Shown here one piece after another: positions 59,633 through 63,749 of a stretch of 64,000 bases of DNA. The number at the start of each line of letters is the position of its first letter. Position 1 is the stretch's first letter. The stretch lies in the sequence record PV660448. One strand, 5' to 3'. The stretch is from Escherichia phage LF82-4. A model generated the notes under the pieces. That model was given only the letters and a program-made list of their open reading frames with translations, ran no database searches and was not told the DNA's origin. The translations under genes were made by a program, and so were the position numbers.

Positions 59633-62600
59633 ATGGCTACTTTAAAACAAATACAATTTAAAAGAAGCAAAACTGCAGGAGCACGTCCTGCCGCTTCAGT
59701 ATTAGCCGAAGGTGAATTGGCTATAAACTTAAAAGACCGTTTACTTTTTACTAAAGATGACCAAGGAAATATCATTGATCTTGGTTTTGCTAAGGGTGGT
59801 AGTATTGACGGGAATGTTATTCATACTGGCAATTATAACCAAACTGGCGATTATACTTTAAATGGTACCTTCACTCAGACTGGTAATTTTAATTTAACTG
59901 GTATTGCTCGAGTAACTCGCGATATTATTGCTGCTGGGCAGATTACGACTGAAGGCGGAGAATTTATTACAAAAAGTTCAGGTACAGCACATGTTCGTTT
60001 TCATGATTCCGCCGACCGTGAACGCGGTATTATTTTTTCTCCTGCTAATGACGGTTTAACTACACAAGTAGTTAACATCAGAGTTCAAGATTACAAAGCT
60101 AGTTCAGAAAACACTTTCGCTTTTAATGGAAATGGTTTGTTTTCTTCACCAGAAGTTTTTGGGTGGAAATCCGTATCAACTCCGGTAATTTATACCAATA
60201 AAGTTATCACCAATAAAAAAGTTAAAGATGATTATGACATCTATTCGATGGCAGACAATGTTCCATTGTCTGAAAGCACTACTGCTATTAATCATCTCCG
60301 TGTTATGCGCAATGCTGTAGGCGCTGGTGTATTCCATGAAGTTAAAGATAATGATGGAATAACTTGGTATACTGGAGATGGCTTAGACACTTATCTTTGG
60401 TCGTTTACCTGGTCCGGTGGATTGAAAGCAGGCCATTCTATTTCTGTTGGTACTCCTGGTGGCAATAAAGGATACTCTGAATTAGGGACTGCTTCAATTT
60501 CTCTTGGCGATAATGATACCGGGCTAAAATGGCACCAGGATGGATATTTTTTTACGGTAAACAACGGTACAAAAACTTTCCTTTCTGGTCCGGCGGAAAC
60601 CACTAGCCTTAGAAAAATGGTTATGGGTTATTCTGTAAATGGCACTGATTTGACTACTCCTCCAACTGAAAATTATGCTCTTGCAACTGTTGTTACTTAC
60701 CATGATAATAACGCGTTTGGAGATGGTCAGACTCTTTTAGGATATTATCAAGGCGGTAACTATCATCATTATTTCCGCGGCAAGGGTACTACAAACATTA
60801 ATACTCATGGCGGTTTGTTAGTTACTCCAGGTGATATTAATGTTATCGGTGGTTCTGTTAATATCGATGGTAGAAATAATGCTTCTACATTGTTGTTTAG
60901 AGGTAACACAACTGGTACCAGTTCAGTTGATAATATGACAATTTCTGTATGGGGTAATACCTTTACTAATCCTAGCGAAGGCACCCGTAAAAATGTCATG
61001 GAAATTTCTGACGCAACTAGTTGGATGAGCTATATTCAAAGACTTACTACTGGCGAAGTAGAAATGAACGTTAATGGTTCATTTGAATCATCTGGTGTTA
61101 CTGCTGGAGATAGAGGAGTTCACACAACAGGTGAAATTTCATCTGGAGCAGTGAATGCTCTTCGTATTTGGAACGCAGATTATGGAGCCATTTTTAGACG
61201 TTCAGAAGAAAGTCTTCATATTATTCCAACTGCTTATGGCGAAGGCAAAGATGGCGATATCGGTCCACTTCGCCCGTTTAGTATGGCTTTAGATACTGGT
61301 AAAGTTACTATTCCAGATTTACAATCAAAATACAATACGATCACTGCGAACGGCTATATTAAATTTGTTGGTCATGGCGCTGGCGCAGGTGGATATGATA
61401 TTCAATATGCCCAAGCGGCTCCTATTTTCCAGGAAATTGATGATGATGCTGTAAGCAAATATTATCCTATTGTTAAACAGAAGTTTTTAAACGGTAAATC
61501 CGTTTGGTCTTTAGGTACTGAAATTAATTCGGGTACATTTGTTTTACACCATATCAAAGAAGATGGATCACAAGGACATACATCTCGTTTTAATCAAGAC
61601 GGTACTGTTAACTTCCCTGATAATGTTCAGGTTGGTGGTGGTGAAGCTACTATTGCTCGCAACGGTAACATCTGGTCTGATATCTGGAAAACGTTTACTT
61701 CAGCAGGAGACACTACAAATATTCGCGATGCAATAGCTACTCGTGTTTCTAAAGAAGGCGACACGATGACAGGTCGTTTAACTCTTAAAACCAACTCAGA
61801 TGCTGTTGTTATTGATTATCCGGCAGATGAAGCGGGCTATATTAAGGGTAAAAAAGGTGGTGCTGATAACTGGTATGTCGGTAACGGTGGTGCTGATAAC
61901 GGTTTAGCTTTCTGGAGCTTCCAATCCCAAGGTGGTATTAATATCAACCCGAACGGTGAAGTTATTCTGGCGCCGCAAGGTGTTGCAATAGTCAATATAA
62001 ACCGCGACCGTATTCATATGAATGGTTCCAACTGGATTGCACATAAATCTGGTGCGTGGGGCGACCAATGGGGCTTAGAAGCACCTTATTTCCTTGATTT
62101 TGGTAGCGTTGGCGAAGACAGTTATTATCCCATTATTAAAGGCCGATCTTTAATTAGTGGTCAGGGTTATACTACTTCTGTTGAATTAGGCATGCGTCGT
62201 ACTCCACAAACATGGGGACAAGCGATAATTCGAGTTGGTAATGCCGAAGGCGCTGACGGTCCTGTGGGTGTTTTTGAATTCCATTCTGACGGTAGATTTT
62301 ACTCCCCGACTTTAGTCCAGACTCCTGCAATTGGTGTCGGTACTGTTAATGGATTAGGCTCTCCTAGTATTGCTATTGGTGATAATGATACTGGATTAGT
62401 TCATGGCGGTGATGGACGAATTAACATGGTTGCCGATGGTGCACATATTGCTTCATGGTCTTCATCCCATCATGAACACACTGGGCTTTGGAGCACCGAC
62501 GGCGCGTTTTGGACAGAAGTTGGCAAAGCAATTATTTCTCATGGCCATTTAGTCCAACAAGGTGATGCCTATTCCACATTTGTCCGCGATGTTTATGTCC

Positions 62601-62938
62601 GCTCTGATATTCGTGTTAAAAAGGACCTAGTTAAATTTGAAAATGCTTCTGAGAAGCTTTCAAAAATTAATGGTTACACTTATATGCAGAAGCGAGGCCT
62701 AGATGAAGAAGGTAATCAGAAATGGGAACCAAACGCTGGATTAATTGCTCAAGAAGTTCAAGCTATTTTACCTGAATTGGTTGAAGGCGATCAGGATAGT
62801 GAAGCTTTACTTCGTTTGAACTATAACGGTGTAATTGGTTTAAATACAGCTGCAATCAATGAGCATACTGCAGAAATTGCGGAACTTAAATCAGAAATTG
62901 AAGAACTTAAAGCATTAGTTAAATCATTGTTAAAATAA
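59633..62938 (+). CDS. 37: Long tail fiber distal subunit gp37 with C-terminal intramolecular-chaperone-like domain
   Basis: 1101 aa; T4 gp37-like N-terminus; last ~110 aa SDIRVKKDL...GYTYMQKR...LNYNGVIGL... plus coiled-coil tail. Confidence 0.95.
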
Positions 62939-62942
62939 TAAG

Positions 62943-62958
62943 AGGGGCTTCGGCCCCT
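62943..62958 (+). terminator. Hairpin between genes 37 and 38
   Basis: AGGGGC-TTCG-GCCCCT 5 nt after gene 37 stop; immediately precedes SD of gene 38, so may be an attenuator or stability element rather than full terminator. Confidence 0.45.
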
Positions 62959-62969
62959 TGGAGGTTTAT

Positions 62970-63749
62970 ATGGCAGTAACAGGACCGTGGGTAGGATCGT
63001 CTGCAGTAGTTAATACAGGACAAAATTGGATGGGTGGTGCCGCGCAGAGATTGAGAATGGGAATTCCGTTTTGGATGAGTAATATGATAGGTCGATCTGT
63101 TGAAGTAATTCACACACTTGGAGCGGACCATAACTTCAATGGTCAATGGTTCCGAGATAGATGTTTTGAGGCAGGTAGTGCACCTATAGTGTTTAATATC
63201 ACTGGAGATTTAGTATCATATTCTAGAGATGTTCCTTTATTCTTCATGTACGGAGATACACCTAATGAATATGTTCAATTGAATATACACGGCGTAACGA
63301 TGTATGGTCGCGGCGGGAATGGTTGGGCTGCTGGAGCGATTGGAGCGTCTGACGGTGGTGTATGTATCCAAAATGATATAGGTGGACGTCTACGAATTAA
63401 TAACGGGGGAGCTATTGCTGGTGGCGGCGGTGGCGGCGGTGGATATTCACAAGCCAACAACTGGGCGGGAAAATATGTTTGTGGTGGCGGTGGCGGTCGT
63501 CCATTCGGCTTAGGCGGAAATAATGGTGCTCGATGGCCTGGCGGTAATGCTAGTTTGACGTCTCCGGGTGCTGGCGGTAATACTGGTACAGGGTATTATG
63601 CAGGTGGAGGTGGTGAAGTTGGTCAGCCAGGACAATATGCTAATCCAGGTGCTGGTTATTCAACACCTCCGACAAATCCTGGTGCTGCTGTAGCAGGATC
63701 AGCTCCAACATGGCAAAACGTTGGAGCAATATATGGTCCAAGAGTATAA
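62970..63749 (+). CDS. 38: Tail fiber tip adhesin gp38 (T2/T6-type, glycine-rich motifs)
   Basis: ATG with SD GGAGG (track ORF uses an upstream TTG); poly-Gly stretches separating short variable segments. Confidence 0.88.

Follow-up and report, generated by a model that had tools for sequence, protein, structure and literature searches.

The long tail fibres of Escherichia phage LF82-4 (sequence record PV660448) very probably end in a receptor-recognition tip of the T2/PP01 type, in which the distal subunit gp37 cleaves off its own C-terminus and is capped by the adhesin gp38, with O157-type OmpC as the likely receptor. This reading comes from a computational analysis of genes 37 and 38 in a 64,000-nucleotide stretch of the phage genome, here called the window, which followed up an earlier note made by a model from the letters of the sequence. 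The features of gene 37 that bear on cleavage are as follows.

59633..62938, + strand: gene 37, long tail fibre distal subunit precursor (1101 residues plus a TAA stop; a second TAA lies at 62939-62941)
60884..61318, + strand: domain common to the gp34 C-terminal trimerisation region (gp37 residues 418-562)
62600..62605, + strand: predicted autocleavage site Arg990^Ser991, DVYVR^SDIRVKK, placed by alignment to the S16 and fPS-phage sites
62603..62935, + strand: C-terminal intramolecular chaperone domain of Peptidase_S74 type (residues 991-1101, 111 residues)
62603-62605, + strand: putative catalytic Ser991, the first residue of the chaperone domain
62618-62620, + strand: putative catalytic Lys996, five residues after Ser991 (S991-D-I-R-V-K996)
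62864-62935, + strand: C-terminal heptad-like helix of the chaperone domain (residues 1078-1101)

The open reading frame agreed with the length of 1101 residues that the earlier note had assigned to gp37, and the protein matched PHROG 1699 ('long tail fiber protein distal subunit') from end to end (E = 0). Using BLASTP, we found that residues 1-743 of T4 gp37 aligned with residues 1-640 of LF82-4 gp37 only, at 34% identity. Residues 418-562 scored 31.8 bits with the Pfam family Gp34_trimer and matched the T4 gp34 structures 4UXE and 5NXF in the PDB with E values of about 1e-13. The proximal fibre protein gp34 and gp37 have this module in common, and it is present in both half-fibres. Taken whole, gp37 was at most 90.1% identical in amino acid sequence to any phage record, and its exact sequence formed a singleton cluster at 90% clustering, found only on one unannotated Logan contig. 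An NCBIfam scan of gp37 and gp38 matched no family, which carries no information here, as the library is aimed at proteins of bacteria and archaea.

The last ~110 residues of gp37, from position 62600, had been proposed to resemble a self-cleaving chaperone of the Peptidase_S74 kind. We placed this tail at 111 residues from Ser991, in agreement with the proposed start, and the Pfam search supported the assignment: Peptidase_S74 (PF13884; curated cut-off, 22 bits) scored 54.5 bits (E = 1.4e-14) on a 114-residue tail and 48.5 bits on full-length gp37. Profile positions 1-57 of 58 aligned with residues 991-1050, i.e., beginning at Ser991. Because the Pfam scores far exceed the cut-offs, the likeness is not due to chance. 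The nearest solved chain was S16 gp37 (PDB 6F45_A), which matched across residues 907-1101 with E = 3e-47, and the two chaperone domains were 56% identical. A profile of four gp37 tails also detected human MYRF, a protein whose kinship with the intramolecular chaperones of phages is recognised; the match (E = 3e-4) spanned nearly the whole of its self-cleaving domain (PDB 7DC3). The domain sits at the extreme C-terminus (residues 991-1101 of 1101), and the part upstream of it is homologous to the trimeric beta-helix of S16 gp37 (6F45).

Both putative catalytic residues were invariant in LF82-4, PP01, LF82-9, BECP11, S16, T2, and T6 (SDxRxK motif), and the chaperone domain was 95-98% identical to its counterparts in PP01, BECP11, and LF82-9. 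After trimerisation, S16 gp37 loses its last 113 residues by autocleavage at DLNVS^SDRRIKK, which exposes the docking surface for gp38, and the corresponding site in fPS-phage gp37 is DVYIR^SDGRLKI (PMC7917993). The role of the Ser-Lys dyad is attributed to Schulz et al. 2010 where PMC7917993 cites that work, and a passage of PMC3157838 that cites Drexler et al. 1986 describes how, in T2 and T6, proteolysis removes the C-terminus of gp37 before gp38 caps the fibre. Since the LF82-4 sequence DVYVR^SDIRVKK aligns with the S16 site and the Ser and Lys are invariant, we predict a cut between Arg990 and Ser991, which would leave a mature gp37 of 990 residues and release a fragment of 111 residues. 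On this homology, the C-terminal folding domain of gp37 almost certainly cuts itself off.

The adhesin predicted to cap the cleaved fibre is encoded by the next gene, with these features.

62970..63749, + strand: gene 38, T2-type tail-fibre adhesin (259 residues plus stop)
62970..63089, + strand: gp38 N-terminal attachment domain with W7, W20, and W35 (residues 1-40)
63090..63746, + strand: gp38 receptor-binding domain, beta-helix and polyglycine-II sandwich (residues 41-259)
63420-63443, + strand: poly-Gly run GGGGGGGG (G8; residues 151-158)
63483-63497, + strand: poly-Gly run GGGGG (residues 172-176)
63603-63614, + strand: poly-Gly run GGGG (residues 212-215)

A protein of ~259 residues with several poly-Gly stretches had been described here, and all three runs were recovered at the positions above; glycine makes up 24% of gp38 and 33% of its residues 110-259. 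The protein had further been classed with the adhesin type of gp38 rather than with the T4 chaperone type, and the searches point the same way. Pfam GP38 (PF05268) matched residues 45-259 over profile positions 1-218 of 218 (242.7 bits, E = 4.9e-72) and Gp38_N (PF21721) matched residues 1-40 (76.7 bits), both with cut-offs of 25 bits, while PHROG 2056 ('tail fiber protein; host specificity') matched gp38 with E = 2.6e-109. PDB matches were 9V85 (E = 7e-143) and 6F45_D (E = 3e-52). By BLASTP, T4 gp38 showed no similarity to LF82-4 gp38 (E = 17), and a Pfam scan of gp38 turned up no tail-fibre-assembly family of the T4 gp38 or lambda Tfa chaperone kind.

When gp38 was aligned with its counterparts in PP01, LF82-9, T2, T6, and S16, a comparison that the earlier note had suggested in part and that was run for T2, T6, and PP01, W7, W20, and W35 and the glycine-rich motifs were invariant, and these conserved glycine motifs alternated with variable segments, the loops, which differed, as in the textbook pattern for such adhesins. 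The three Trp residues act as prongs that are inserted into pockets of gp37 (PMC6851490). From its near-identity to PP01 gp38, for which these properties were demonstrated (PMC12892980), we infer that gp38 is carried in the virion at the fibre tip, where it would bind the receptor. A 263-residue, TTG-initiated open reading frame was considered as gene 38 and rejected, as the ATG at 62970 has GGAGG 5 nucleotides upstream and gives the N-terminus MAV(x)GPW that is common to all homologues.

Receptor specificity was assessed from the five loops of gp38, with limits taken from PMC12892980.

63324-63341, + strand: gp38 loop A, W119-I124
63450-63479, + strand: gp38 loop B, Q161-V170
63519-63536, + strand: gp38 loop C, N184-W189
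63579-63596, + strand: gp38 loop D, N204-Y209
63642-63662, + strand: gp38 loop E, N225-S231

Residues 21-256 of LF82-4 gp38 were identical to those of PP01 gp38 in the PP01 genome record; outside this range, the two proteins differ at 8 positions within residues 1-20 and at residue 257. Compared to 9V85, a superfolder green fluorescent protein fusion of the PP01 receptor-binding domain, residues 41-259 had one mismatch, P257 for S. Loops A-E of PP01 were all unchanged, and the functionally important PP01 residues Y159, K168, Y169, G208, Y209, A228, and Y230 were all present. PP01 gp38 binds OmpC of E. coli O157, whose loops 5 and 7 form a cleft that takes up loop E; a GVIN insertion in loop 7 of O157 OmpC is the key determinant, and specificity maps to the gp38 loops (PMC12892980). 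Given the identity to PP01 across gp38 residues 21-256, O157-type OmpC is the likely receptor of LF82-4. The proposal in the earlier note that host range is set by the gp38 variable loops agrees with this work on PP01 (PMC12892980), whose five loops recur here, and at the adsorption step host range would be set mainly by gp38.

We considered whether the end of gp37 itself might contribute to specificity. Three features are relevant.

62351..62602, + strand: distal tip of mature gp37, predicted gp38 docking surface (residues 907-990, ending RDVYVR990)
62471-62479, + strand: HEH motif in the mature gp37 tip (residues 947-949)
62540-62548, + strand: HGH motif in the mature gp37 tip (residues 970-972)

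Residues 907-990 align with the portion of S16 gp37 that was crystallised together with gp38 (6F45_A), and docking of gp38 on the gp37 tip has been described for homologues (PMC6851490, PMC7917993), so that this segment would be the docking surface in LF82-4. As the earlier note had stated, gp37 does not end in a needle of the T4 type: BLASTP detected no significant similarity to T4 gp37 beyond LF82-4 residue 640, and homology to the T4 needle (T4 residues about 785-1026) was not found, the T4 tip chain being missing among the PDB matches of gp37. Two HxH motifs are nonetheless present, both within 45 residues of the predicted cleavage site, and the first, HEH, lies in a 12-residue, HHEH-containing insertion that has no counterpart in S16 gp37. 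Within the cassette formed by genes 37 and 38, only one other part diverges more than the tip. Judged against phage records, the mature tip (residues about 880-990) represents an allele not sampled before; no donor was identified for the divergent segment 62150-62620, for which the top phage record was CEV1 at 84.6% nucleotide identity.

In the T4 gp37 needle, iron is coordinated by HxH motifs. It is conceivable, if unlikely, that the novel LF82-4 tip co-determines specificity, either by binding metal ions as the T4 needle does, with its histidines forming metal sites in the trimer, or by contacting lipopolysaccharide or a second receptor, which would give a gp38-independent contact with the cell surface and a specificity that is not purely that of gp38. 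However, S16 gp38 caps the fibre and projects past its end, leaving gp37 set back from the cell surface, and the specificity of PP01 maps to gp38. The motifs themselves vary in near relatives, reading QSH in LF82-9 and FGH in PP01. Because they are not conserved among these phages, the HxH motifs should be regarded as a weak lead only.

A receptor other than OmpC is very unlikely. Such a switch could arise, for example, if the adhesin were turned by the different gp37 beneath it or by its own changed N-terminus, and the N-terminus does differ from that of PP01 at 8 positions; moreover, single gp38 loop substitutions have switched receptors in Ox2- and T6-type adhesins (PMC3157838). In LF82-4, however, all five loops and residues 21-256 match PP01 exactly, and the 8 N-terminal differences lie in the attachment domain, where they closely match gp38 of the O157 phage BECP11 (99.2% identical overall to LF82-4 gp38).

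That the gp37 C-terminal domain is an unremoved chaperone-like relic in which the fibre would end, with gp38 located elsewhere or acting as a transient assembly factor, is hardly credible. Cleavage in LF82-4 is carried over from homologues, and degenerate catalytic residues do occur in some proteins that contain Peptidase_S74. In LF82-4, however, both Ser991 and Lys996 are intact, and neither varies among the phages compared. The domain shares 95-98% identity with those of PP01, BECP11, and LF82-9 and 56% with that of S16, where cleavage is reported. The three-Trp attachment domain of gp38 docks on a surface exposed only by cleavage, and gp38 lacks similarity to the T4 assembly chaperone.

Collectively, these findings suggest how a T2/PP01-type tip could be assembled in LF82-4. 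By analogy with the family, gp37 would be made as a precursor of 1101 residues, of which the last 111 would trimerise and set the register in which the trimeric, beta-helical tip before them folds. Once the trimer has folded, the Ser991/Lys996 pair would release the domain between Arg990 and Ser991, as homology to S16 and T2 suggests, exposing a flat fibre end (...DVYVR). One gp38 monomer would then attach to this three-fold end by way of its helical N-terminal domain, in which Trp7, Trp20, and Trp35 would serve as prongs, as in the S16 structure. The glycine runs of gp38 would form the rigid core of a polyglycine-II sandwich from which loops A-E protrude toward the receptor, and loop E would enter the cleft between OmpC loops 5 and 7 with support from loops B and D; loop B may also touch lipopolysaccharide.

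Nothing that we found in the sequence argues against a self-cleaving gp37 capped by a PP01-like gp38, but several points call for caution. Cleavage, a gp37:gp38 stoichiometry of 3:1, and the use of OmpC are all transferred from homologues. Due to the novel gp37 tip and the differences at 8 of the first 20 gp38 residues, compatibility of the two proteins at the docking surface is assumed. A single-sequence AlphaFold2 model of the 114-residue tail was all-helical, with a mean pLDDT score of 59 and a predicted template modelling (pTM) score of 0.33; only its C-terminal helix was confident, and the model is too poor to serve as independent evidence for the fold. Finally, short tail fibres, O-antigen shielding, or host defence systems could override this module in determining host range.

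To place the module in its genomic context, the neighbouring genes were mapped as follows.

53942-57775: gene 34 (1277 residues)
57784-58908: gene 35 (374 residues)
58968-59624: gene 36 (218 residues)
63781: ATG of gene t (holin), downstream of gene 38

The long-tail-fibre genes 34, 35, and 36 lie directly upstream of gene 37 in the usual order, and the order gene 37, gene 38, gene t is also found in LF82-9, PP01, T2, and T6. The window does not encode gp57A, the general chaperone that serves S16 and T-even fibres. Between 20000 and 44000, the window and the Escherichia phage LF82-n genomes (Mosigvirus) ran in register at 99.7-99.8% identity. A sliding comparison with the LF82 series gave 97-100% identity until about 59850, a patchwork of 42-99% from there to about 63750, and 99% in gene t; inside gene 37, patches of 99% alternated with patches of 60-80%. 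Because genes 35-36, compared from 57700 on, match LF82-9 (96-100% identity), the boundary of the exchanged region lies inside gene 37 and not at its start. LF82-9 gp38 is 71% identical to that of LF82-4, with different loops. Gene 38 DNA was instead 91-99% identical to that of the Tequatrovirus BECP11, and parts of gene 37, e.g., 60066-60315, were 97-98% identical to the same Tequatrovirus. These comparisons indicate that genes 37 and 38 form an exchangeable host-range cassette, with a recombination mosaic of fine grain inside gene 37; such mosaic cassettes are common in T-even fibres.

We also considered whether a Mosigvirus with a Tequatrovirus-type O157 adhesin was a new combination, and rejected this idea, as Mosigvirus SF, isolated on O157:H7, already has such a gp38 (97.7% identical to that of LF82-4). 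Separately, the gene t coding sequence contains a perfect palindrome with an 11-bp stem, CTCTGGAAATA-TTCT-TATTTCCAGAG, at 63857-63882. An exact copy occurs in Mosigvirus SF and in no other locus among those compared.

Two features lie between genes 37 and 38.

62942..62959, + strand: hairpin GAGGGGC-UUCG-GCCCCUU, directly 5' of the gene 38 ribosome-binding site (fold -17.8 kcal/mol, z = -2.55)
62960..62964, + strand: Shine-Dalgarno sequence GGAGG, 5 nucleotides upstream of the gene 38 ATG

The hairpin is identical in PP01 and BECP11, and in LF82-9 the stem is kept with the loop CUAA. A role as terminator between the two genes was rejected, as no T-run follows on the + strand. This stable hairpin of the C(UUCG)G type has instead the look of an element for RNA stability or processing. 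Two copies of the 14-mer GGGGCTTCGGCCCC are present in the window, one within 62942-62959 (+ strand) and one at 14375-14388 (- strand), compared to 0 occurrences expected by chance.

Among known systems, the module of PP01 (and AR1) is the closest. The receptor-binding domain is identical apart from residue 257, and that of PP01 gp38 has been solved (PDB 9V85); the gp37 chaperone domain is 98% identical, and the UUCG hairpin and the gene order 36-37-38-t are the same. PP01 gp37 is 81% identical overall with patchy mosaicism and has 1109 residues compared to 1101 in LF82-4, and the backbones differ, that of LF82-4 being Mosigvirus and that of PP01 Tequatrovirus. S16 (PDB 6F45) has the same architecture, with a trimeric gp37 beta-helix, an autocleaved C-terminal chaperone domain whose SDxRxKK motif aligns with LF82-4 gp37, and one gp38 in which three Trp prongs are combined with a beta-helix and a polyglycine-II sandwich. 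The two differ in gp38 (about 50% identity, other loops), in the chaperone domain (56%), and in the 12-residue tip insertion, which S16 lacks. S16 targets Salmonella OmpC, while LF82-4 is predicted to use the O157 type.

The T2 and T6 modules follow the same logic: both gp37 proteins carry a VY(I/V)R^SDxRxK motif, and the gp38 attachment domain and glycine motifs are conserved, although the last 152 gp37 residues are just 30-34% identical to those of LF82-4. LF82-4 gp38 is 50% identical to that of T2 and 65% identical to that of T6, and the loops differ, so that different receptors are expected. T2 uses OmpF and FadL, and T6 uses Tsx. T4 has the same locus and gene order and a homologous gp37 N-terminus (the 640 residues noted above), but its gp37 carries its own receptor-binding needle and lacks a Peptidase_S74 tail, unlike that of LF82-4, and T4 gp38, an assembly chaperone without relation to the adhesin, is absent from the virion (PMC12892980). 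The Peptidase_S74 domains of endosialidases and tailspikes, as well as MYRF, share the Ser-x4-Lys spacing with LF82-4 gp37, and the endosialidase and tailspike domains likewise occupy the C-terminal position on a trimeric fibre. These similarities are distant, and the cargo differs: neither a sialidase nor a transcription factor but a T-even fibre tip precedes the domain in LF82-4.

Structural and functional descriptions already exist for the self-cleaving gp37 tail, for the polyglycine adhesin, and for the exact receptor-binding domain, and by our comparisons the only new part is the particular gp37 mosaic; the module opens no new question. It is of practical use for annotation and permits a prediction from sequence, namely that this Mosigvirus would adsorb via O157-type OmpC with the GVIN insertion in loop 7. 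As its 99.7%-identical relatives of the LF82 series bear a different adhesin, LF82-4 offers a clean case of natural cassette exchange limited to genes 37-38, and this example could guide phage choice or fibre engineering.

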